A stretch of 64,000 nt of DNA. Origin: Gemmatimonadales bacterium (GTDB lineage: Bacteria > Gemmatimonadota > Gemmatimonadetes > Gemmatimonadales > GWC2-71-9). The stretch is taken from NCBI GenBank assembly GCA_035695405.1, contig DASSED010000157.1:28407-92406 (forward strand), read 5' to 3'. Positions 51,954-64,000 of the stretch are shown one piece after another. Numbering within the stretch: the stretch's first letter is position 1; every line of letters begins with the position of its first letter. The translations under genes were made by a program, and so were the position numbers. The notes under the pieces were generated by a model. It was not told the origin of the DNA. It was given only the letters and a program-made list of their open reading frames with translations, and searched no databases.

Positions 51954-52023
51954 GCGGGCCGGTCCCTTTTCCGCTGCTCACCGGTTACCGCCACGCACCG
52001 CTCTCAACTTTGCTGGAGACATC

Positions 52024-52644
52024 ATGCTCGGCTACGACTGGCCTCGGCTGCACGCTGCGCTCAACGATCTCCCGACTGCCCTGCTCCTGATCGCCGTGCT
52101 GTTCGATGTCCTAGCCCTGGCGCGTCGCAGTCAGACCCTCCGAGCCGTGGGATTCTGGACCCTGATGGCTGGTGCGGTGGGGGGAGTGTTGGCGGTTATT
52201 TCGGGCCTCCAGGCTGAGGATCACATTCAGCATGGGGAAGAAGTGCACCGGGTCATGGAGACCCACGAAACCCTGGCGTTGATCACCCTGGGGACCTTCG
52301 CGGTGTTGGCGCTGTGGCGGCTCGTACGCGAACGCCGGATGGGGAGTGGGGAGCGCCTGGCCAGCGTGCTCCTCTCAGTGGGCGGCTTGGGGGTGATGTT
52401 CGCTACCGCGATCTACGGAGGCAAACTGGTCTTCGAGCATGCGGCGGGAGTGCCCAGCGCCGTGCTGCAGGCAGAGCTCAAAGAGCGGAGTGAGGGCCAT
52501 CATCATCACGCTGCCGGCGAATCGGACGAACCCAGTGACGAGCCCGCCGACGCCCAAGACAGCTCAGCCGGACAGATCGACTCAGCCGGCGCTCTTCCTC
52601 ACACGCATACCCACCCACCCGGCACGCCGGCCCATCAGGACTGA
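52024..52644 (+). CDS. DUF2231-like membrane protein with a His-rich C-terminal tail
   Basis: Four TM segments. N-terminal HAALNDLPTALLLIAVLFD-type motif. Tail EGHHHHAAG...HTHTHPPGTPAH. Confidence 0.65.
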   Translation: MLGYDWPRLHAALNDLPTALLLIAVLFDVLALARRSQTLRAVGFWTLMAGAVGGVLAVISGLQAEDHIQHGEEVHRVMETHETLALITLGTFAVLALWRLVRERRMGSGERLASVLLSVGGLGVMFATAIYGGKLVFEHAAGVPSAVLQAELKERSEGHHHHAAGESDEPSDEPADAQDSSAGQIDSAGALPHTHTHPPGTPAHQD

Positions 52645-52647
52645 CGG

Positions 52648-53193
52648 GTGAAAGCCTCTCTTGCGCTGGTGGCCTGTGCGTTGGAGCTGGCGGCGTGCCG
52701 CCCGAATACGACTCGTCCACCGATCACTCCGTATCCTGAGGCAGCCGGCACCGAGGTCCGGCTTCCTGTCGTCGAGGCCACTCGGCACTTGGCGGAGGCC
52801 TTGAAGGCCGATTCGATTCCGACTCGCCAGATCCAGCTCCGCGATGGCTACATCGAGACCGGCTGGTTTCTTGCAGCCAGCGGACGTCCGGCACCGGCGC
52901 GAAAGTTTGGCCCGGGAGTGGTGCGGGTTCGTGCCTGGGCCGATCCGGCTCGCCCGGGTAGCTCGCAGCTTACGGTGGAGACCCTCTATCGGCCGGTCTT
53001 GGACCCTTCGTTACCCGAGCGGGAGCTGGAGCGGCAGGTACCCCGCAATCATCCGGTGGCGGTCAGGGTGGAAGGAGCGCTGAAGCAGCTGGTCGATCGC
53101 TACGGCGGAGCACCCGGCCCTCAAGCCGAGGCTCCCACCCGGCCCAGAAAGCCGAGTGAGCAAGTTGAGGGGGGAGGAGACGACTCGGAGTAG
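52648..53193 (+). CDS. Hypothetical lipoprotein
   Basis: GTG start 3 nt after the upstream stop. Lipobox ELAAC. Confidence 0.55.
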   Translation: MKASLALVACALELAACRPNTTRPPITPYPEAAGTEVRLPVVEATRHLAEALKADSIPTRQIQLRDGYIETGWFLAASGRPAPARKFGPGVVRVRAWADPARPGSSQLTVETLYRPVLDPSLPERELERQVPRNHPVAVRVEGALKQLVDRYGGAPGPQAEAPTRPRKPSEQVEGGGDDSE

Positions 53194-53195
53194 CA

Positions 53196-53990
53196 TCACA
53201 CCACATACGCCTGCACCCACCGTTCGAGCTGCGCCAGGTCAAGCGCGGCGTCTTTGCACGGTCCCGATGGGAGCGTCATCGTGAGACCGAGCACCGGGAT
53301 CTTACCCGCGACATCATGCAGGCCACTCACCATATCCCGCTCACACGCCACGGCGACCACTGCTCTCGGCCGCCGCTCGCGGATGACCCGCCGGGCAAGT
53401 TGCCCCCGGGTGGCAACGAACACCGGAACTCCGTACTTCCCGGCGATCCCGAGCACGCCGTCGAGCGTGACGCGAGAGAGGCAGCGCGGGATCAAGAGCA
53501 GAAGCTCTCCCTGATCGACCTTTCGCCCCCGCCTGATCGCCAGCTCGTTATACACCTTGACGGCGGCATTCTCGACCCAGTCGCGCCGGCCGAACTGCCC
53601 GGCCACCATCGACGTCAGCCGCATGAGGCCGAGAAACGGGCCCCGCTCCGCGAGGCGCTCGGGGAGGAGTGACCGCCCGACCTGGTGGGAAAGCAGCAGC
53701 AGCGCCCACCAGAGCCAGAGCACCGACGTAATGAGCAACAGAGCGCTCCATAGCATGGTCGGAGCCTTCGGATGCAGCGCGGCGATGCGGGGCGTGAGCA
53801 GGTAGAGCACCAAGGCGACCCCAGCCAGTCCGGCAGCGAGAGTCAGGGCCGACCAGCCGAAGAACAACACTGGTGGTGAGTCGTAATTGCCCTGATTGGG
53901 GAGCGGCTGACCGTCCCACTCATCCCACTCATGTCCGAGCCGGCGGTCGACATCGATGTGGATCAGTTGGGCCCGAGGTGCGTCAGCCAT
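53196..53990 (-). CDS. DUF116-like membrane protein
   Basis: Three N-terminal TM segments plus a cytoplasmic domain with LLLIPRCLS and VAVACERD motifs, which I associate with DUF116. The family call is from memory only. Confidence 0.5.
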   Translation of the reverse strand: MADAPRAQLIHIDVDRRLGHEWDEWDGQPLPNQGNYDSPPVLFFGWSALTLAAGLAGVALVLYLLTPRIAALHPKAPTMLWSALLLITSVLWLWWALLLLSHQVGRSLLPERLAERGPFLGLMRLTSMVAGQFGRRDWVENAAVKVYNELAIRRGRKVDQGELLLLIPRCLSRVTLDGVLGIAGKYGVPVFVATRGQLARRVIRERRPRAVVAVACERDMVSGLHDVAGKIPVLGLTMTLPSGPCKDAALDLAQLERWVQAYVV

Positions 53991-54018
53991 AGAGTGAGAA
54001 GATAGTTAGCTTTTTGCG

Positions 54019-55683
54019 ATGCTGCCTCCTCCCAAAATCAGAGGAATCTATCGCACCGATCCCAGAGCCCGTGCGGCCTACGCCGAGGGAGCGGGGATTT
54101 ATCGTATCGTGCCCCGGGCGGTGTGCGTGCCGGCACATGCGACGGACATCGAGCTGCTGGTCTGCTGGGCCGGAGATCACGGCCTACCGCTGGTTCCCCG
54201 AGGCGCTGGGAGCGCCATGGGAGGTGGTAACGTGGGAGATGGGGTCGTGGTCGATCTCACTGGTCTGCCTCGTCGCCTGGAGATAGATCCGGGCAGCCGG
54301 GTGGCCATTACCAGCGCGAACGTCACCTTGGCCGAGCTGAACGCCGCGGCGGCTCGGCACGGGCTGCGTCTTCCGCCCGATCCATCGAGTGGACGTTGGG
54401 CCACGGCCGGCGGTATGGTGGCCACCAACGCCGCTGGCGCCCGATCAGTGCGGTATGGCAGCGTTCGCCACTGGGTCCAGGGCCTCACTCTGGTGACCGC
54501 CGATGGAGTGAGCTCGACCCTGCGCCGCGGTCACCCGGCGAAGGGGTCGGCATCGGCGGTACTCGATCGCTTCGAGCGGCAGGCTCGTCATGCCATCACC
54601 GGAGCGGCCGGGCTGGTGGCCGCTCGCTTCCCGAAGACTCGGAAGAATTCCTCGGGGTATGCGCTCGATGCGTATCTGGCATCCGGTGATATCCTGGACC
54701 TCCTGATCGGTGCGGAAGGCACCCTTGGCATTATCACCGAGGTTGAGTGGCGGCTCGACCCGATCCCTCCCTGCCGCGCAGGGCTGCGAATGGCTCTGGG
54801 GTCACTCGACGAGTTGGCGCCCGCGGTCGCGAGCTTGAGCTCGCTCCAACCGTCGGCGCTGGAGCTGTTGGACCGAAGCTTTCTGGATTTGATCAGCGCC
54901 GATGAGGTCGGGAGTGCCGGCATCCGGTTTCCCGGAGCCGAGGCTGTGCTTCTGGTCGAGCTGGAGCGGGAAGACCCGACCTCGCTGAGGAACGCGCTAT
55001 CCGACGCTACCGCCCGAGCCCGACCGGTGGCGCAGTCCGTGGACGCGGCGTACTCCGCCGATGCCGCGGCCCGGCTCTGGGCCATTCGCCATGCCGCGAG
55101 TCCCATTCTGGCTCGGCTACCGGAGAGCCGGAGATCGCTTCAGGTCATCGAGGACGCCTGCGTCCCCCTGGATCGCATGAGTGACTACATTCGCGCCGTG
55201 CGACAGGCGGCGTCGGAGCGGGGAGTGCCGGTGGTGTTGTTCGGTCACGCAGGCGATGGGCATATCCATGTGAACCTGCTGCCGGATGTGACCCGCCATG
55301 GCTGGGAGGAATCGATCGCAGCGTTGATGGACCAGGTCAATCAGACAGTGGTCCAGCTGGGCGGGACTCCTACCGGAGAGCATGGGGACGGGCGGCTGAG
55401 GACCGGATGGGTGGAACGGGTGTATGGCCCCGACATCGTCGACCTGTTCCAGATGATTAAACGGATTTTCGATCCTCGCGGAGTCTTCAACCCCGGAATT
55501 ATTCTGAGCGGTGGTGAGCCGCCGATCCGCCGGCTCAAGGTGGGATCCGCGGCGGCGGCGCTCCCGGCCGACCTGGACCGCGGGCTTCGCGAGATCGAGC
55601 GGACCGGCGGGTATGGGCGGAGTAGATTGGAGTTGGCCGACGCCGACACCCTGGACCCTAGACTCTCGACTCTCAACTCTTGA
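54019..55683 (+). CDS. FAD-linked oxidase (GlcD / D-lactate dehydrogenase-like)
   Basis: PCMH-type FAD-binding N-domain (LVPRGAGSAMGGG), GEHGDGRLR motif, and a C-terminal FAD-oxidase domain. The last codons lie in heptad repeats. Confidence 0.85.
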   Translation: MLPPPKIRGIYRTDPRARAAYAEGAGIYRIVPRAVCVPAHATDIELLVCWAGDHGLPLVPRGAGSAMGGGNVGDGVVVDLTGLPRRLEIDPGSRVAITSANVTLAELNAAAARHGLRLPPDPSSGRWATAGGMVATNAAGARSVRYGSVRHWVQGLTLVTADGVSSTLRRGHPAKGSASAVLDRFERQARHAITGAAGLVAARFPKTRKNSSGYALDAYLASGDILDLLIGAEGTLGIITEVEWRLDPIPPCRAGLRMALGSLDELAPAVASLSSLQPSALELLDRSFLDLISADEVGSAGIRFPGAEAVLLVELEREDPTSLRNALSDATARARPVAQSVDAAYSADAAARLWAIRHAASPILARLPESRRSLQVIEDACVPLDRMSDYIRAVRQAASERGVPVVLFGHAGDGHIHVNLLPDVTRHGWEESIAALMDQVNQTVVQLGGTPTGEHGDGRLRTGWVERVYGPDIVDLFQMIKRIFDPRGVFNPGIILSGGEPPIRRLKVGSAAAALPADLDRGLREIERTGGYGRSRLELADADTLDPRLSTLNS

Positions 55684-55688
55684 ACTCC
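55661..55688. repeat. Tandem heptads GACTCTC GACTCTC AACTCTT GAACTCC at the 3-prime end of the oxidase gene
   Basis: Read directly. 55661-55674 is the exact reverse complement of 14012-14025. Confidence 0.6.
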
Positions 55689-55690
55689 TC

Positions 55691-56485
55691 ATGCCCCTCG
55701 ACACCACCGACGCCCGGCTCGTGACCGATCAGATCGAGATCCTTCGAGCCCCCCGGGTCACCCTTATCGCGCGGCCCCAGTTCCTTGAACCGGAGCATCT
55801 CCGGATCCAATGGAAGGGTGACTCGAGCGACGGGGAGCGGATCGCGGAGTTCGCCGGCCGGCTCTGCTACATGAGCCAGCATAACCCGGCGGGCCGGAGC
55901 ACCGCGGAGTATCTCCGGAACATCCTCCGGCAGGGGCACGGCTCGGTCTTCGAGCATTCCACCTATGTGATGCTCATCGAGGGGATCTCGCGCTCGTGCA
56001 GCCATGAGCTGGTTCGTCATCGCGCGGGATGGGGCTACTCCCAGCTCTCGCAGCGGTACGTGGACGAGTCTCACGCCGCCTTCGTCATGCCCCCGGCGAT
56101 CATGGGAGACCCGGCGCTCGAGGCGGACTGGATTCGTCAGGTCGAGTCGGCGCAGGCGGCCTACGTCGCGGCGGTCGAGCGGCTCATGGCCCGCTACGAG
56201 TGGGTGGAGGACAAGGTGCACCGCCGCAAGATGGCCCGCGAGGCCGCCCGGAGCGTCTTGCCCAACGCCACCGAGGTGAAGATCGTCGCCAGCGCGAACG
56301 TGCGGGCGTGGCGAACCATGCTGGAGCTCCGATTAGGCGAAGGGGCCGAGCTGGAGATTCGGCGGATGGCGGTGGCCTGCCTCCGCGTGCTCCAGGAAGA
56401 AGCGCCGGCGCTCTTCGCGGACTTCGAGATCTATCAGTCGAGCGAGGGAGGAGAAGCAGGACGTGTCGGGTTTCATAAGGTGTGA
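55691..56485 (+). CDS. thyX: FAD-dependent thymidylate synthase
   Basis: ATG 55691. ThyX signature ELVRHRAGWGYSQLSQRY (RHRxxSxxxxSxR). The track start at 55511 lies inside the upstream gene. Confidence 0.9.
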   Translation: MPLDTTDARLVTDQIEILRAPRVTLIARPQFLEPEHLRIQWKGDSSDGERIAEFAGRLCYMSQHNPAGRSTAEYLRNILRQGHGSVFEHSTYVMLIEGISRSCSHELVRHRAGWGYSQLSQRYVDESHAAFVMPPAIMGDPALEADWIRQVESAQAAYVAAVERLMARYEWVEDKVHRRKMAREAARSVLPNATEVKIVASANVRAWRTMLELRLGEGAELEIRRMAVACLRVLQEEAPALFADFEIYQSSEGGEAGRVGFHKV

Positions 56486-56490
56486 ACGGC

Positions 56491-56532
56491 GGTGAGTGGT
56501 GAGTGGGGGAAATTCGCTTCGCGAATTTCCCC
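56491..56532 (+). terminator. GGTGAGT x2 heptads followed by a perfect 12-bp hairpin (terminator-like, no U-tract)
   Basis: GGTGAGT GGTGAGT (56491-56504), then GGGGAAATTCGC-TTC-GCGAATTTCCCC (56506-56532), followed by AAAAA rather than T residues. Confidence 0.4.
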
Positions 56533-56639
56533 AAAAACTATTGTGCCCCCTAAAACTTTTTCTTACTTTAGTTACGTCGATTCGCATGCACTCGTCCTGG
56601 CTCGTCTCTCGCGGACGGCCTTTTTTGTAGAGGGCTCAT

Positions 56640-57743
56640 TTGGCAGTTCGGATCGGACTGGCCTTTAATCTCAAACCCGAGGCGCCGGCTAAGCCAGCCG
56701 GGGCGAAATCTGAATCCCCTTCGTCCGACGAGCCTCCCAGTCGGGCTCTCCGACCAGACCTCCATCAACCCGATCTCTACGCTGAATGGGATGAGCCCGC
56801 CACGATCGACGCGGTGGAGCGGGCGCTCAGCACCGTAGGCCAGGTCTATCGGCTCGAGGCCAACGGCAGCTTTCCCGCTCGGCTGGCGCTGCTCCGGCCC
56901 GACTTCGTCTTCAACATCGCGGAAGGCCTCTACGGCGCGAGCCGCGAGGCCCACGTCCCCGCCATCTGCGAGTTTCTCGGCGTTCCGTATCACGCCTCGG
57001 ACCCGCTTACCTGCGCCATCGCGCTGCACAAGGGACGGGCCAAGGAGATCCTCTCCTATCGGGGAGTGCCCACGGCGCCGTTCATCGTGGCCCACTCACC
57101 GGCCGATGCACGACGAGTCAAGCTGCCCTTCCCGCTCTTCGTCAAACCGGCGTACGAAGGATCGGGCAAGGGGATCACCACCCGGAGCGTCTGCCGCAAC
57201 CGGGTTCAACTGGTCAAGCAGGTCTCTCATCTGCTCGCCACGTACTCCGAGCCGGTGCTGATCGAGACCTATCTGCCGGGCGACGAGTTCACCGTGGCCA
57301 TCCTCGGCAACGGTGACGAAGCTCGCTGTTTGCCCATTATCGGCATGCGATTTGATACGCTGCCCCGCGGTGCGCCGCCCATCTATGGGTATGAGGCCAA
57401 GTGGATCTGGGATACGCCGGAGAATCCTCTCGAGATCTACGAGTGCCCTGCCGCCATCCCCGAAGGACTCGCGAGGGAGATTCGGGATGCGGCGCTGGCT
57501 GCCTATCACGCCTTGGAATGCCGCGACTGGTGCCGCGTCGACGTCCGCTGTGACGCCGCCGGTCGTCCGATGGTTGTCGAGCTCAATCCGCTGCCGGGCA
57601 TTTTGCCCGACCCGCGAGATCATTCCTGTTTTCCCAAGGCCGCGGCCGCGGCCGGAATGAGCTACGACGATCTCATCCGCGCCGTCGCCGATGTGGCCTG
57701 GCAGCGGATCAGCGGCCGTTCACTCCTGGCGGAGGTAGCCTGA
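56640..57743 (+). CDS. ATP-grasp ligase, D-alanine--D-alanine ligase family-like (substrate unknown)
   Basis: TTG start with GAGGG RBS. The Ddl-like layout (..FNIAEGLYGASREAHVPAICEFLGVPYHASD.., PLFVKPAYEGSGKGI, LIETYLPGDEFTV, VELNPLPG) carries an extra Pro/Ser-rich insertion near the N-terminus. Confidence 0.8.
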   Translation: MAVRIGLAFNLKPEAPAKPAGAKSESPSSDEPPSRALRPDLHQPDLYAEWDEPATIDAVERALSTVGQVYRLEANGSFPARLALLRPDFVFNIAEGLYGASREAHVPAICEFLGVPYHASDPLTCAIALHKGRAKEILSYRGVPTAPFIVAHSPADARRVKLPFPLFVKPAYEGSGKGITTRSVCRNRVQLVKQVSHLLATYSEPVLIETYLPGDEFTVAILGNGDEARCLPIIGMRFDTLPRGAPPIYGYEAKWIWDTPENPLEIYECPAAIPEGLAREIRDAALAAYHALECRDWCRVDVRCDAAGRPMVVELNPLPGILPDPRDHSCFPKAAAAAGMSYDDLIRAVADVAWQRISGRSLLAEVA

Positions 57744-58753
57744 TGAAAGTCGCCATCCTCTTCGACGCGGGCAGCGAAGAGTGGAGCCCTCAGGACGTCG
57801 CCGCAGTCGTGGCCAACGTCCATGAAGTGCGTGATGTACTCCGGCGTCGGGGGCACGAGGTTGAGCTCCTGCCGGTCCGGCAAGGAGACTTTCGCTGGCT
57901 CTCCCGGGCCCGCCGGGCCGATCTGGTCTTCAATCTCTGTGAGGGGATCAACGGCCACGCCCGCTTCGAAGACCTCGTGGTCGGTACCCTGGAGCTCACC
58001 GGCGTGCCCTTCACTGGATGCCGTACCTGGCCCACCAGCATCTGCCATCGCAAGCACGTCGCCAATACTCTGCTCTCCTCCGCCGGCGTGCCGGTCCCGG
58101 CGTTTACTCTGGCGCAGGCCAACAAGAGTCCGGCGGAGTTCCCTCTGCCGGCCATCGTCAAGCCTGCTGCGGAGGATGCGAGCGTCGGGATCGACAATGG
58201 CGCCGTCTGCACCAGCAAGCGGGCGCTGAAGCGCCGGGTGGCGCAGATGCTGGAGCAGTTCGAGGAAGTTCTGGTGCAGGAATACGTGCCCGGCCGGGAA
58301 TTCAACGTGGGCTTCATCGGCAAGCGAATGCTTCCCATAGCGGAGATCCGCTTCGAGGACCTGCCCCAGGGAACCTGGCCCATCGTGAGCTACGCGGCCA
58401 AGTGGATCCCGGGAAGCCCGGAGGACGAAGGCACCATCCCCGTGTGCCCGGCCGAGCTGCCGCCCGAGCTATACCAGCGAATCACCGAGGTCGCCCGGAA
58501 GGCGTGGGAGCACATGTGCGGCTTCGAAGGCTATGGCCGGGTGGATATGCGCCTCAACGAGGACGGCCAGCCGTACGTACTCGAGGTGAACCCCACGCCT
58601 GATCTCTCCAGCAACGCCGGGCTCGCCCGCATGGGCCGGGCATTCGGCTGGAACTACGACGAGCTGGTCATGCAAATCGTCGACGAGGCCCTGATGCGGT
58701 CCCAGAGCCATACTGCCGCCGACGCCCTGGTCAGCGGGGTGTCCGCCGCGTGA
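57743..58753 (+). CDS. Second ATP-grasp ligase, Ddl family-like (paralogue of the previous gene)
   Basis: TGATG 1-nt overlap with the upstream stop. MKVAILFD.., FNLCEGINGHARFEDLVVGTLELTGVPFTG, PAIVKPAAEDASVGI, VQEYVPGREFNV, LEVNPTPD. Confidence 0.8.
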   Translation: MKVAILFDAGSEEWSPQDVAAVVANVHEVRDVLRRRGHEVELLPVRQGDFRWLSRARRADLVFNLCEGINGHARFEDLVVGTLELTGVPFTGCRTWPTSICHRKHVANTLLSSAGVPVPAFTLAQANKSPAEFPLPAIVKPAAEDASVGIDNGAVCTSKRALKRRVAQMLEQFEEVLVQEYVPGREFNVGFIGKRMLPIAEIRFEDLPQGTWPIVSYAAKWIPGSPEDEGTIPVCPAELPPELYQRITEVARKAWEHMCGFEGYGRVDMRLNEDGQPYVLEVNPTPDLSSNAGLARMGRAFGWNYDELVMQIVDEALMRSQSHTAADALVSGVSAA

Positions 58754-59238
58754 GCGGCACGCTGATAACCGTCCGTCTCCGTCCCCTCAGCAGAGCCGAC
58801 CGGCCCCGCATCGAGGAAATCACTCGTGCCGTGGGTCGGTTTCGCGACGATGAAGTGCTCGTTGCGCTCGAGGTCTTCGACGCCGCTGCCGGTGGAGATC
58901 GGTCCTACACCACGCTCGGCGCCGAGCTCGGCGGCCGCCTGGTCGGCTGGATCTGTTGGGGTCCCACACCCTGCACCCTGGGCACTTTCGACCTCTACTG
59001 GATGGCTGTAGCGCCTGAGCTCCAGGGGGGCGGGATCGGTACCGCGCTGGTGGACGAGATGGAGCGGCGGCTCGCTGGAGCCGCGCGGCTCATCGTGGTA
59101 GAGACCGCGGGACGGGCGGTCTACGCCTCTACCAGGGCGTTCTATCAGGCGCGGGGATATCACCCAGTGGCGCTGATCCCCGAGTTCTACGGCCCGGGCG
59201 ATGATCAGGTCGTGTTTGTAAAGGAGATAGGGCGGTAA
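58750..59238 (+). CDS. GNAT-family N-acetyltransferase
   Basis: GTGA overlap with the upstream stop. Acetyl-CoA motif LYWMAVAPELQGGGIGTALVDEM. Confidence 0.8.
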   Translation: MSGTLITVRLRPLSRADRPRIEEITRAVGRFRDDEVLVALEVFDAAAGGDRSYTTLGAELGGRLVGWICWGPTPCTLGTFDLYWMAVAPELQGGGIGTALVDEMERRLAGAARLIVVETAGRAVYASTRAFYQARGYHPVALIPEFYGPGDDQVVFVKEIGR

Positions 59239-59276
59239 GGCGGTACGGCGGTACGGCGGTAGGAGTACCTACCGCC
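59231..59276. repeat. Tandem octamers GGCGGTAA GGCGGTAC GGCGGTAC GGCGGTAG, the last forming the hairpin GGCGGTAGG-AGTA-CCTACCGCC
   Basis: Read directly. It overlaps the GNAT stop codon and lies 20 nt upstream of the kamA ATG. Confidence 0.6.
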
Positions 59277-59295
59277 CGCAATCCTGGAGGCTGTG

Positions 59296-60417
59296 ATGGC
59301 GGAAACTTGGCAAGAGGTTCTCAAGAAAAATTCGATCGCCTCGCTGGAGGCGCTGGCCAGTAAGTTTGGTCCCGAGAACTTTCCCGAGCTCGACCGGCTG
59401 CGGCTCGCGGCCGAGAACTTCGAGTTCCGGATCTCGCCGGCCATGGTGGACCTCATCAAGTCTCCCAACGACCCGATCTGGCGGCAGTACGTGCCATCGG
59501 TGGAAGAGTTGGACGTGGTCGACGGGATCGTGGACTCGCTCAACGAAGATGCCGACAGCCCGGTACCGAACATCACCCATCGCTACCCCGACCGGGCCCT
59601 TTTTCTGGTCTCTCCGGTCTGCGCCACCTACTGCCGCTTCTGTACCCGCCGCCGGAAGGTGGGTGACCCCGAGAAGATCCCGATGTCGCAATTCGAGAGC
59701 GCCTTCCGCTATCTCGAGGAGCATACCGAGATCCGTGACGTCATCATGTCCGGAGGAGACCCCTTGCTCCTCAATGATCGCCGGCTCGAGGCCATCCTCA
59801 CCCGCCTCCGAGCCATCCCCCACCTCCAGATCATTCGGATCGGAAGCCGGATCCCCTGTCACCTGCCGGAGCGGATCACCCCTGAGCTCTGTGCCACACT
59901 CCAGCGGTTCCATCCGCTCTTTATCAACACCCACTTCAATCACCCCGACGAGCTGACCCCGGCGGCGGTCGCCGCACTCGGACGGCTGGCGGATGCCGGC
60001 ATTCCGCTGGGCTGCCAAACGGTCCTGCTCAAAGGCGTGAACGATACCCCGGAGGTGATGACCGAGCTGATGCAGCGGCTGCTGATGGCCCGGGTTCGCC
60101 CTTACTACATCTATATGGCGGACCAGGTCGCCGGGGCTGAGCACTTCCGCACCTCGGTACAGACCGGAATCGAGATCATGCGGGCGTTACGGGGATGGAC
60201 CAGCGGCCTCGCGGTCCCTTATTTCGTCATCGACGCGCCGGGGGGCGGAGGCAAGATTCCGATCTTGCCGGAGTACGTCGAAAGCATGAACGAGGACGAG
60301 GTGGTGCTGAGGAACTTCCGGGGGGAGCGCTACGTCTACCGGCAGCCCAGGGAAGAGGCAGGGGTCATCGAGCTGAAGCAGGAGCGGAAGCGCGCGGTCC
60401 GGCGCCGCTCGGCATAG
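59296..60417 (+). CDS. kamA: Lysine 2,3-aminomutase (KamA-family radical SAM / PLP enzyme)
   Basis: CATYCRFCTRRR radical-SAM cluster motif, SGGDPLLL, RIGSR, NTHFNHP, and LLKGVND are typical of KamA/AblA. Confidence 0.9.
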   Translation: MAETWQEVLKKNSIASLEALASKFGPENFPELDRLRLAAENFEFRISPAMVDLIKSPNDPIWRQYVPSVEELDVVDGIVDSLNEDADSPVPNITHRYPDRALFLVSPVCATYCRFCTRRRKVGDPEKIPMSQFESAFRYLEEHTEIRDVIMSGGDPLLLNDRRLEAILTRLRAIPHLQIIRIGSRIPCHLPERITPELCATLQRFHPLFINTHFNHPDELTPAAVAALGRLADAGIPLGCQTVLLKGVNDTPEVMTELMQRLLMARVRPYYIYMADQVAGAEHFRTSVQTGIEIMRALRGWTSGLAVPYFVIDAPGGGGKIPILPEYVESMNEDEVVLRNFRGERYVYRQPREEAGVIELKQERKRAVRRRSA

Positions 60418-62020
60418 GCGCCCTCATGGCGGCCCCTTCATTCACTCGCCATTCCGGCAATCCGCTGATCCATGAGTACGGGTCGATCTTTACGTTATCC
60501 AACCGTCGCTGGACCGCTGCCACGTTGACCAAAGAGTAAAGAAAAACCGCCGGCACATCGGCGTTGAGCGTATCCATGGCCTCGTGCCAGAGGCGCTTGG
60601 CGCTGCCGAGGTCCTCCTCCTTGGTGGCCGCTCGCACCAGTGAGTCGAAGGCGGCGCTCCCATAGTGCCCGTAGTTGGTGACTGACCAGCCCGCCCGGGT
60701 CCACTGTTCGTTCAGCCCCCGCGGACTCGGCTCGTCCAGATACGCCCCGATGTAGCTGTCGAATTTCCCCTTGGCGAGCCGCTCCTGGAAGACGGGGAAC
60801 TCGACAGTCGTTACCGTCGACTTCATCCCCACCCTTCTCCACGCCTCCTGTATCGCCAGAGCCAGCTGTCGGCGGGTACCGCTCGTTGCTGGAACCAGAA
60901 TGTCGATAGTTGCCGTCTGGCTAGGCCCCGAGAGCCGGTTCACCACCGCTTTCCCTTGCACCGAATCGAAGGACGTAGGTCTGATCCCATCATCCCAAAT
61001 CCAGAGAAGCTGGGACATCGGGCCCGGCGGCGCCTTGGTCCCCGCCCCGAATACCGCCTGGGCAATCGCCGGGCGGTCGATGGCCTGGGCCAATGCGCGC
61101 CGCAGGTCTCGATTCCCCAGCAGGGGATCTGGCCGTCCGCCCGCATCGGCCACTCGGAATGCCAGGAAGCCATAGACCGCAGCCGGGTACCTCATCAGCC
61201 GGAAGTTCGTGTCTGCCGCCACTCGCTGTACCCGGTTCGGCGCCCCGACGGTCTCCATCAGATCGGCTTCGTGACTCAGCAGCAGGTTGAGGGCGGCATC
61301 GGGATCGGAAGCGAAGCGCCAGATGGCCCGGCGAATGGCCGGCATCTTCTTCGCGTCGGACTCGATCGTGTCGGCCACCAGCGTCAGGAAACTGCCGCGC
61401 TGCCAGCCCGCGAGGTGATAGGGTCCGCTTCCCACCAGATGCGCCAGGTTGGTATCCGCAGCCCAACGCTCACGCGGAATCGTGTCCCAGATATGCCGAG
61501 GGAGCACTCTCACGTGATAGGTGGCATCGTACAGCTGTTCCGGTGACGGCTGGGTAAACACCACTCGCACCGTGTTGGAGTCCTCCGCCGTCGCGCGGAC
61601 TTTACCCTCCAGATAGCTCCGTGCCGGCGAGTCCAGGGTAGAGTCGGTAAAGACCTGAAACGAGAAGACCACGTCCTCGGCGGTCAGGGGTTTCCCGTCC
61701 TGCCACCGGGTGCCCGGCCGAAGGTGAAACCGCCAGGTCAGTGAGTCCACCCTCTCCCACCGGTCAGCCAGCCCGGGACGGAACGCACGCTGATCGATGG
61801 GCGAGCCGTGGGGCTCGAGATAGGCCAGGCGCGAGTAGATCTGATCGCTGATGTCTCTCGCAACCGTTTCCACCACGAGGGGTGGTATCAGGCTGCTGGG
61901 CTCACCGGTGGCGGCCACTACCACGGTGCAGTCGGCGCAGCCGCGCGGACGCTCCCCTCCGCATCCGACCAGGGAGATTCCAAGTACAACCACCAGCCAG
62001 CGACCCGAGGATCCAACCAT
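60365..62020 (-). CDS. ABC transporter substrate-binding lipoprotein, family 5 (peptide/nickel/opine type)
   Basis: Lipobox ISLVGCGG and family-5 layout (..RWQDGKPLTAEDVVFSF.., ..PGPMSQLLW..). Its last 53 nt overlap the 3-prime end of kamA. Confidence 0.85.
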   Translation of the reverse strand: MVGSSGRWLVVVLGISLVGCGGERPRGCADCTVVVAATGEPSSLIPPLVVETVARDISDQIYSRLAYLEPHGSPIDQRAFRPGLADRWERVDSLTWRFHLRPGTRWQDGKPLTAEDVVFSFQVFTDSTLDSPARSYLEGKVRATAEDSNTVRVVFTQPSPEQLYDATYHVRVLPRHIWDTIPRERWAADTNLAHLVGSGPYHLAGWQRGSFLTLVADTIESDAKKMPAIRRAIWRFASDPDAALNLLLSHEADLMETVGAPNRVQRVAADTNFRLMRYPAAVYGFLAFRVADAGGRPDPLLGNRDLRRALAQAIDRPAIAQAVFGAGTKAPPGPMSQLLWIWDDGIRPTSFDSVQGKAVVNRLSGPSQTATIDILVPATSGTRRQLALAIQEAWRRVGMKSTVTTVEFPVFQERLAKGKFDSYIGAYLDEPSPRGLNEQWTRAGWSVTNYGHYGSAAFDSLVRAATKEEDLGSAKRLWHEAMDTLNADVPAVFLYSLVNVAAVQRRLDNVKIDPYSWISGLPEWRVNEGAAMRAPMPSGAGPRASAPASAR

Positions 62021-62243
62021 GGCGTGCCTACCTATAAATGAAGAGCGGGGCCATATCGGGGGATCGTGACCTATTATCGGCTATCTCGGCAGCTAACGAC
62101 GCTTCCGGTTGGGGCCTCCAGCCAGCCGTCGTTTGTATCGCGCCGTGACAGGCTGCATCGAAATATTGCAAAGCCAGGCTGGGAGTTCCATGGCGTCTGA
62201 GTGTAAGTTATTACCTTACAAGCTCTTCTAAAAAACTACTGAA

Positions 62244-62260
62244 AGGCACACCGGTTGCCT
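62244..62260 (+). promoter_or_regulatory. Sigma-54 (-24/-12) promoter candidate
   Basis: AGGCAC-ACCGG-TTGCC has GG at 62245-62246 and GC at 62257-62258, the exact GG-N10-GC spacing of TGGCAC-N5-TTGC. It lies about 40 nt upstream of ATG 62300, which has an AAGGAG RBS. A sigma-54 activator gene follows downstream. Confidence 0.5.
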
Positions 62261-62299
62261 TGGGAGAGGCCGTTCCCCGACCCCTCACAAGGAGACCCT

Positions 62300-63079
62300 A
62301 TGCGTGGTCCGTTGAGTCGCGCCGTCAGCCTGACCCTCGCCTGTGTCGTCGCCGGCGGATGCAGCGATGCCGGTCCGTCCACCTCGAGCCAGGTGAGCTT
62401 CAATGTTGCGACACTGCCGGCCCCTGCGGCCATTTCGGGCACGGCCTTCGTAGTGAACGGCACGCCGGAGACGTTCATGGACGGCACCGGCAACACCCTG
62501 GTCATCAACAAGGTCGAGCTGGTGTTGCGCGAGATCGAGCTGCATCGCACCGGCGCAGTTGCGGAATGTGCCGGCGGCGGCGTCAGCGATGACTGCGAGG
62601 AGCTGGAGATCGGTCCCCTGTTGGTGGACGTCCCGCTGGGGACGCCGGGCGCGGCGCGGAGCTTCAGCGTCGAGCTGGCTCCTGGCTCCTATGACAAGGT
62701 CGAGTTCCAGATCCACAAAGCGTCTCCCTCGGATGATGGCAGCTTCGTGCAGGCCAATCCCGATCTGGCGGACGCCAGCGTTCGGGTGACCGGTACCTAC
62801 AACGGTACGGACTTCACCTACATCGGCCGCTTTGACGCCGAAGAGGAGTTCGGGCTGAATCCGCCGCTCGTCGCCAATGAGACCGGCGCCACCGATCTCA
62901 CGCTGTTCCTGGATCTGGACAAGTGGTTCCGGGATCAGTCCAGCTCCCTGGTGGATCCCAACACCGCCAACACGGGCCAGCCGAATGAGGGGCTCGTGGA
63001 GCAGAACATCAAGAGCGCCCTGGACACGTTCGAGGACGAAAACCACGATGGCCGTGACGATGGCCCTGACCATCAGTAG
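62300..63079 (+). CDS. Hypothetical lipoprotein (possibly DUF4382-like)
   Basis: ATG 62300 gives [21 protein letters not shown]. Beta-rich body. The minus-strand ORF 62285..63073 is an antisense shadow. Confidence 0.6.
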
Positions 63080-63093
63080 GGGCGGAGTTGGGG

Positions 63094-64000
<907 letters not shown>

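Follow-up and report, generated by a model that had tools for sequence, protein, structure and literature searches.

The roles described for beta-lysine in bacteria and archaea are mainly those of a precursor of osmolytes, an intermediate of fermentation, a modifier of the elongation factor EF-P and a building block of antibiotics. Two described systems lie close to the locus considered here: KamA-type lysine 2,3-aminomutases and GNAT acetyltransferases are an established pair for osmolyte synthesis (PMC3543383, citing Pfluger 2003), and the KamA paralogue EpmB provides beta-lysine for EF-P (PMC2821294, PMC4739656). We analysed a group of four genes, G1 to G4, at positions 56640-60417 on the plus strand of a 64-kb stretch of DNA (the window) from a member of the Gemmatimonadales, a soil-type bacterium whose nearest homologues are 77-93% identical and are also named Gemmatimonadales. 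At this locus a KamA-type enzyme (G4) and a small GNAT (G3) are accompanied by two ATP-grasp ligases of the Ddl fold (G1 and G2), and the two ligases beside KamA were found to form a conserved cassette in more than one phylum. The parts come from known families, and it is their combination and likely product that are new. As the gene set recurs across several phyla, the cassette probably builds a small molecule that contains beta-lysine. An earlier reading made from the sequence alone had proposed a pathway to a beta-lysine-derived product for these genes, and this interpretation is partly supported by the results below.

Gene content and distribution of the cassette

Open reading frame (ORF) calling recovered the four co-directional genes at the coordinates given in the sequence-only reading, together with the TGATG and GTGA overlaps and the 57-nt spacer that it had described. 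G1 (56640-57743, TTG start, 367 aa) encodes the G1-type ligase and G2 (57743-58753, ATG start, 336 aa) encodes the G2-type ligase, both of them Ddl-fold ATP-grasp enzymes. They are followed by G3 (58750-59238, GTG start, 162 aa), which encodes the small GNAT acetyltransferase, and by G4 (59293-60417), a KamA-type lysine 2,3-aminomutase gene that begins either with GTG (374 aa) or with an ATG at 59296 (373 aa). The ATG of G2 overlaps the stop of G1 by 1 nt in the junction cTGATGa (57741-57745), the GTG of G3 overlaps the stop of G2 by 4 nt in gcGTGAgc (58750-58753), and the spacer between G3 and G4 measures 54 nt up to the GTG and 57 nt up to the ATG. Given the stop/start overlaps, the hairpin behind the upstream gene thyX and the upstream element with its leader, G1-G4 are most naturally read as one operon, and the overlaps and the conserved upstream element thus support the one transcription unit that had been suspected. 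Profile searches with Pfam and NCBIfam confirmed the family assignments of the four proteins (two Ddl-like ATP-grasp ligases, a GNAT and KamA); none of the models in NCBIfam release 20 is specific to G1, G2 or G3.

A genome scan with a family alignment gave 78 Gemmatimonadota and 2 Ignavibacteriales loci, and 60 evaluable loci came from a metagenome scan that started from distant members. KamA was found to adjoin the ligase genes in 64/75 evaluable genome loci, mostly in the order G1-G2-GNAT-KamA, and to lie beside them in 48 of the 60 metagenome loci, both fractions being raised by a rule that counts short contigs as evaluable once a partner gene has been seen. The other metagenome loci carry polyamine genes (5/60) or a lone G2-like gene (7/60). 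The link between KamA and the ligases was also observed in the Ignavibacteriales (L079, L080), in a metagenome-assembled genome (MAG) of the Planctomycetes that has G2 and KamA only (L088) and in distant lineages (L086, L087, L089). Besides the G1-G2-GNAT-KamA order, there are layouts in which a G1-like gene lies 5 kb upstream of KamA-G2 and others in which G2 converges on KamA-G1. The smallest recurring pair consists of a G2-type ligase and KamA, as seen in L088 and in the KamA-G2 layout. The GNAT is often absent, and KamA-linked ligases were found without any GNAT in 23 + 8 metagenome loci. The sequence-only reading had left room for ligase genes that adjoin kamA in this genome only; since the synteny spans phyla, such an isolated association does not hold, and the ATP-grasp pair is seen to co-occur with kamA well beyond the Gemmatimonadales.

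No transporter, precursor peptide, peptidase or tailoring gene was found to be conserved with the cassette when the ORFs of 84 loci were clustered. Because no transporter is conserved, a secreted product, which had been one of the options considered earlier, is argued against. Additional conserved partners were rejected, as the only neighbours that recurred were lineage-specific ones (an RlmI-like methyltransferase, AspRS, RecG and a two-component system). In cassettes of the Ignavibacteriales type, and in this one lineage only, a gene for an M24-family peptidase (Xaa-Pro-peptidase-like, 67-73% identical) is located directly 3' of KamA (L079:7547-8734, L080, L086:10282-11472, L112, L116 and L129), and this peptidase could serve to turn over the product of the cassette. 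One lineage has genes for a histidine kinase, a response regulator of the sigma-54 type and a further receiver protein between its G1-like gene and KamA-G2 (L087, L096-L099, L102, L106, L119, L124, L128-L135, L145, L149 and L151), which hints at sigma-54-dependent control of this version of the cassette.

Active sites and the proposed product

Both ligases match PF07478 (Dala_Dala_lig_C; 6e-35 for G1 and 2e-28 for G2) and are 36% identical to each other. On the Ddl model NF002378 they reach 170 bits (G1) and 151 bits (G2) against a cut-off of 243, and on TIGR01205, also a Ddl model, 142 and 133 bits against a cut-off of 246. The AlphaFold2 (AF2) model of G2 has a predicted local distance difference test (pLDDT) score of 94.7, and among PDB structures it best matches Ddl enzymes, over its whole length and with template-modelling (TM) scores of 0.75-0.78. 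We compared 20 G1-type and 20 G2-type sequences from cassettes of several phyla in the numbering of E. coli DdlB, a reference that was confirmed over residues 62-303. The residues that serve ATP and Mg binding and catalysis (K97, K144, E187, K215, R255, D257, E270 and N272) were found to be conserved in all 20 sequences of either type. Since these residues are kept, both G1 and G2 should be active enzymes.

The two types differ from each other systematically at the substrate positions of Ddl. The G1-type sequences keep Glu15, which is part of a conserved AEWD motif, as well as Ser150, Tyr210, Gly276 and Ser281, and Leu282 is replaced by Cys or Ala. In the G2-type sequences Glu15 is lost and Ser150 is changed to Ala, Tyr210 to Val, Gly276 to Asp, His280 to Asp, Ser281 to Ala and Leu282 to Gly. 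Two further changes are shared, with Tyr216 replaced by Trp in all members of both types and His63 replaced by Glu in both ligases. A change of Glu68 to Arg in G1 was set aside, as the alignment is off by one residue at this position. Each signature holds across phyla, where identities are 50-57% among G1-type and 33-42% among G2-type sequences. Because the residue signatures differ systematically, the two types represent distinct ancient lineages with different pockets and not redundant copies. Furthermore, a Pro/Ser/Ala low-complexity linker of variable length was observed after the first strand in every G1-type orthologue examined, so the Pro/Ser-rich insertion that had been noticed in one ligase is real.

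Judged from these residues and scores, G1 and G2 are Ddl-fold enzymes and not true Ddl, since the D-Ala-binding set is incomplete and the scores lie far under the Ddl cut-offs. The sequence-only reading had called for a comparison with the pocket of true Ddl, and the pockets do differ. It had also placed the ligases far from any mur or ftsQ context; no mur, van or ftsQ genes were found as neighbours, none of the adjacent genes is concerned with cell-wall synthesis, and the 64-kb window holds no mur genes and no Ddl-like sequence besides G1 and G2. Relatives of the two proteins are named 'D-alanine-D-alanine ligase', 'ATP-grasp domain-containing protein' or 'hypothetical protein' in the databases, and the first of these labels is probably wrong for thousands of proteins of the family.

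We also observed a single protein of 661 aa in which two Ddl-like ATP-grasp halves are fused and which is followed by an overlapping Peptidase_S58 gene (L082:8001-11041 and L083). Peptidase_S58 is the DmpA family, which includes beta-aminopeptidases. Fused double ATP-grasp proteins (P0277 and P0278) were rejected as evidence for a complex of G1 and G2 and are placed on a separate branch, because their active-site signature differs from those of G1 and G2 and no KamA is encoded nearby.

G4 matches Radical_SAM and LAM_C and passes the cut-off of the KamA family model TIGR00238 (286 bits vs 199). Its best-scoring equivalog model is that of AblA (TIGR03820) with 435 bits, which falls short of the cut-off of 525, followed by those of glutamate 2,3-aminomutase (385 bits), arginine 2,3-aminomutase (315 bits) and EpmB (235 bits, cut-off 369). 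With the lysine 2,3-aminomutase of Clostridium (2A5H), G4 shares 49% identity, and it keeps C125, C129 and C132 of the CxxxCxxC cluster, R134, D293, D330 and K337, which binds pyridoxal phosphate (PLP). The residues D293, D330, K337 and R134 were found in 107/107 ligase-linked KamAs. From the literature on 2A5H, Asp293 and Asp330 bind the epsilon-ammonium group of lysine and are replaced in glutamate 2,3-aminomutase. On the strength of these residues, the pocket of G4 is of the lysine type. In the Clostridium enzyme, Cys268 and a C-terminal cysteine cluster form a structural Zn site. Cys268 is absent from G4 and from all linked homologues, and G4 ends ahead of the C-terminal cluster; as the cysteines of the Zn site are missing, the oligomer of G4 may be built differently.

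G3 matches PF13508 (3.5e-11) and PF00583 (2.6e-10), and its acetyl-CoA motif (Q/RxxGxG/A) is QGGGIG, located within LQGGGIG. The AblB model gave no match to G3 at E <= 0.01, and the best NCBIfam match is a weak one to RimI (37 bits vs a cut-off of 86). The closest solved structure is 2R7H (8e-26 over residues 17-160), on which no functional paper was found in the literature searched. The sequence-only reading had likened the aminomutase and the acetyltransferase to AblA and its partners AblB and YodP. The pairing of KamA with a GNAT stands, whereas the AblB-like identity does not, as the AblB model has no match and the nearest structure is the uncharacterised 2R7H; because the GNAT is not AblB-type, the analogy with acetyl-beta-lysine is weaker than had been implied. 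Many lineages also do without the GNAT. Fusions of a G2-type ligase with a GNAT were observed in four proteins (P0127, P0130, P0132 and P0239). The GNAT of locus L007 carries a low-complexity insertion of ~45 aa and is followed by SusC/SusD-like genes.

The reading that we favour, with a confidence that is about even, is that the four genes form one operon for a cytoplasmic beta-lysine-derived amide which would be a solute-like metabolite. G4 would convert L-lysine to beta-lysine, and G1 and G2, with their different pockets, would each make one amide bond through an acyl-phosphate. G2 would handle the cationic amine and couple an acyl group to beta-lysine; it is proposed as the beta-lysine ligase because it is the tightest partner of KamA, has lost the Ddl sites for the alpha-ammonium group and the acceptor carboxylate, and carries two new Asp residues. 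G1 would perform a more Ddl-like amino-acid ligation and so make or extend the amino-acid part, a role proposed because it is the more Ddl-like and more conserved of the two. G3 would then use acetyl-CoA to cap a free amine. The outcome of these steps would be an intracellular N-acetyl-aminoacyl- or N-acetyl-dipeptidyl-beta-lysine, that is, an extended relative of N-epsilon-acetyl-beta-lysine, and it would most plausibly serve as a compatible solute or as another intracellular cation-balancing metabolite.

A sister layout bears on the substrate of the ligases. In six loci (L171, L091, L092, L094, L137 and L153), from a lineage that includes a Thermodesulfobacteriota MAG, the G1-G2 pair was found tightly 3' of three polyamine genes in the position otherwise held by KamA. 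These genes encode an arginine decarboxylase of the pyruvoyl type, an enzyme of the agmatinase type and a homologue of deoxyhypusine synthase; together they constitute the homospermidine pathway of a 2026 study (PMC13625781). The ligase signatures are the same in both contexts except at one G2 position, that of DdlB-Tyr210, where Val is found beside KamA and Cys beside the polyamine genes. Since the homospermidine genes replace KamA in this lineage, the pair is not dedicated to beta-lysine alone, and the shared signatures suggest that long cationic amines as a class may be acylated by it, of which beta-lysine would be the substrate at this locus. The polyamine-type operon spans L171:462-5919 and also occurs in L170, and loci of this type often add methyltransferases, extra GNATs, a third ATP-grasp protein (L092, L170) and two glycosyltransferases (L171).

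This layout gives rise to a broader alternative, which is possible though unlikely, in which G1 and G2 would be a new class of amide ligase for long cationic amines and the product here a beta-lysyl-polyamine or a beta-lysyl protein such as EF-P. If true, it would explain why the same pair lies beside KamA or beside a polyamine module of the deoxyhypusine-synthase type, and its EF-P option would amount to an ATP-grasp replacement for EpmA. We regard as rather unlikely the more specific form in which the ligases join beta-lysine to a polyamine, for example as beta-lysyl-homospermidine or beta-lysyl-putrescine, and in which the operon types differ only in the adjacent genes for precursor supply. 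The signatures of G1 and G2 shared by both contexts, the tight placement of the pair 3' of the decarboxylase, deoxyhypusine-synthase homologue and agmatinase genes for homospermidine synthesis and the acidic residues of G2 at the Ddl acceptor site agree with such a conjugate. However, KamA and polyamine genes were found together within ~7 kb in 0 loci, the polyamine layout is restricted to one moderately related lineage, and the 64-kb window holds no polyamine genes.

It is improbable that the cassette modifies a protein or another macromolecule, for example through beta-lysylation of EF-P by an ATP-grasp enzyme that would be a non-homologous replacement of EpmA, followed by extension and acetylation. 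Some ATP-grasp enzymes such as RimK do modify proteins, and the supply of beta-lysine to EF-P by EpmB provides another precedent. RimI is also the best, though weak, NCBIfam match of G3, the cassette lacks a transporter and needs no further dedicated gene, and KamA and the deoxyhypusine-synthase homologue echo both of the known lysine modifications of EF-P/IF5A. On the other side, G4 scores far higher as AblA than as EpmB, G1 and G2 are predicted to have the complete Ddl small-molecule fold, and no conserved target gene is located nearby. Furthermore, bacterial deoxyhypusine-synthase homologues with these partners make free polyamine (PMC13625781). Finally, a scheme in which KamA and the GNAT make N-acetyl-beta-lysine in the manner of AblA/AblB and the ligases are alternative cell-wall D-Ala-D-X ligases, co-located by an unrelated cause, is very improbable: it would fit the known osmolyte pair and the Ddl/Van families as the closest to G1 and G2, yet it is poorly supported because KamA keeps its link to the ligases where the GNAT is absent, and the GNAT lies outside the AblB family, the Ddl specificity residues are altered, the Ddl cut-offs are missed by about 70-90 bits and cell-wall genes are missing from the neighbourhood.

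The pathway to an acylated and acetylated beta-lysine also has to be weighed against several points that count against it. In 11/75 evaluable genome loci, all of them from the Gemmatimonadales, G1-G2-GNAT occurs without an adjacent KamA (L003-L007, L011, L014-L016, L044 and L076; for example L007:9020-9649), and the co-occurrence fractions as a whole are inflated because short contigs are admitted. G3 is not of the AblB type as judged from its profile matches. The division of labour proposed for G1 and G2 derives from homology to the roles of Ddl residues, and beta-lysine may not be the shared substrate of the pair because the signatures are near-identical in the KamA and polyamine contexts.

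Upstream region and neighbouring features

A hairpin with a 12-bp stem (GGGGAAATTCGC / GCGAATTTCCCC) lies directly 3' of the thyX stop (56505-56533, plus strand) and marks the end of the upstream gene. Its folding energy is -24.5 kcal/mol (z -5.7) and an equal fold was obtained in 0/200 shuffles, in line with the strong hairpin reported earlier for this position. For the AT-rich promoter-like stretch reported beside it, the GC content is 0.55-0.56 around 56350-56800 against ~0.65 elsewhere, and a promoter-like element that is conserved in relatives, AAAAACTATTGTG-N11-TTTTTCTTACTTTAG, is present at 56533-56571 on the plus strand. A generic sigma-70 scan gave no promoter match in the region upstream of G1. 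The element was located because of its conservation among relatives and not by consensus matching. In an alignment of the thyX-G1 region of 13 Gemmatimonadales loci, the blocks AAAAACTATTGTG and TTTCTTACTTTAG upstream of G1 were observed to be near-invariant and their flanks to have diverged. Within the element, TTG at 56541-56543 and TACTTTAG at 56564-56571 are spaced by 20 nt. Promoters of the Bacteroidetes type consist of a -33 TTTG and a -7 TAnnTTTG, and the element resembles them in spacing and form.

The leader contains a terminator-like hairpin (56599-56620, plus strand) with a conserved stem and a U-run (56621-56626), and the Shine-Dalgarno sequence of G1 (GAGGG, 56630-56634, plus strand) is located directly 3' of this U-run. 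The stem is kept in 10 relatives with compensatory changes in 4/8 pairs; when folded alone, the hairpin of the window sequence is not significant (z 0.26). From its form and conservation it looks like a putative attenuator. The promoter-like element and the leader hairpin were also found upstream of G1 in L001-L017, L044 and L076. A riboswitch or other known RNA upstream of G1 was rejected, as Rfam gave no meaningful match in 52000-64000 or in eight cassette loci, and the leader is too short, being shorter than a usual riboswitch would need.

Outside the Gemmatimonadota, a strongly conserved TTGACAA-N10-AAAAnATTATATTTG was observed upstream of G1, followed by a leader of ~80 nt with conserved blocks (L079:3411-3520, L086:5704-5816, L089, L101, L112, L122, L129 and L169). 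RNAalifold gave no consensus structure for these eight non-Gemmatimonadota leaders, and Rfam gave no match to them. A common leader RNA was rejected for these cassettes, in which the promoter-like TTGACAA...TATATTTG is conserved but no consensus fold was obtained.

The spacer between G3 and G4 holds an octamer repeat with a hairpin (59231-59276, plus strand). Four tandem copies of GGCGGTAN occupy 59231-59261, scored as 3.9 tandem copies of GGCGGTAC, and the final octamer pairs with CCTACCGCC (59268-59276) in a 9-bp stem. The repeat and the stem of the octamer hairpin described earlier are thus present, but its stability is not above that of shuffled sequence (z -0.77), and a T-run is absent 3' of the stem. 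The hairpin was rejected as a regulatory element on account of its fold and the unconserved spacer, and the repeat is probably local and non-functional because the length of the spacer differs among relatives. The Shine-Dalgarno sequence of G4 (GGAGG, 59284-59288, plus strand) lies 3' of this hairpin.

G4 and a convergent SBP_bac_5 gene for a peptide-type solute-binding protein (60365-62020, minus strand) share 53 nt at their 3' ends (60365-60417), and the same neighbour is found in L009. On the other side, the longest ORF of thyX (55511-56485) overlaps the end of a FAD-linked oxidase gene (54019-55683) by ~170 nt, and the actual start of thyX is probably an ATG near 55691.

Comparison with known systems

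The sequence-only reading knew of no characterised pathway with this gene set, and we likewise found no description of the cassette in the full-text literature searched; the comparative-genomics survey of Iyer et al. 2009, which lies outside that search, may have noted the neighbourhood. If beta-lysine synthesis is coupled to two dedicated ligases in one self-contained cassette, beta-amino-acid metabolism would gain a branch that has gone unrecognised. The cassette ranges over Gemmatimonadota, Ignavibacteriales, Planctomycetes and Desulfobacterota-type lineages, all of which are abundant environmental bacteria. The coupling of the same pair to homospermidine genes suggests a wider chemistry of acylated cationic amines. 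At 3.8 kb, the operon is small enough for direct heterologous expression.

The closest solved relative of G3, 2R7H, is a structural-genomics entry, and its name, 'putative D-alanine N-acetyltransferase of GNAT family', is no more than a guess. CfmP, an ATP-grasp protein of the TupA-like kind, was rejected as a relative of the ligases, as it belongs to an unrelated family. In the homospermidine pathway of SpeY, a deoxyhypusine-synthase homologue, the genes occupy the KamA position beside G1-G2 in L171 and five other loci; unlike the cassette, this pathway is absent from the window and yields a polyamine and not a beta-amino acid. The term 'ATP-grasp' has 0 occurrences in PMC13625781, which does not connect the pathway with the ligase pair.

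In its logic the proposed pathway is also similar to that of Ngg/AsnO, which Sagot et al. 2010 reportedly described for the osmolyte dipeptide N-acetylglutaminylglutamine amide. There, too, a GNAT and an ATP-grasp peptide ligase, in some cases within a single polypeptide, together make a small N-acetylated peptide solute without a dedicated exporter. However, the ATP-grasp subfamily is a different one and neither an aminomutase nor a beta-amino acid is involved, so that the likeness would be one of pathway logic and not of homology. Genes of the Ngg/AsnO pathway are mentioned in PMC8070244.

With the Ddl/VanA-type ligases, G1 and G2 share the three-domain Ddl fold and all of the ATP, Mg and catalytic residues, and an acyl-phosphate mechanism is expected for them. 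They differ in their scores (150-170 bits vs cut-offs >= 243), in their altered substrate residues and in the lack of a cell-wall gene context. The AblA/AblB system resembles the locus in that a lysine 2,3-aminomutase is in an operon with a GNAT, and G4 has AblA as its best equivalog and keeps the lysine-binding Asp pair. It differs in that G4 falls below the AblA cut-off and G3, which has no AblB match, belongs to the family of 2R7H. Above all, two ATP-grasp ligases are added here, and across the lineages it is the GNAT that is optional, whereas the ligases are not.

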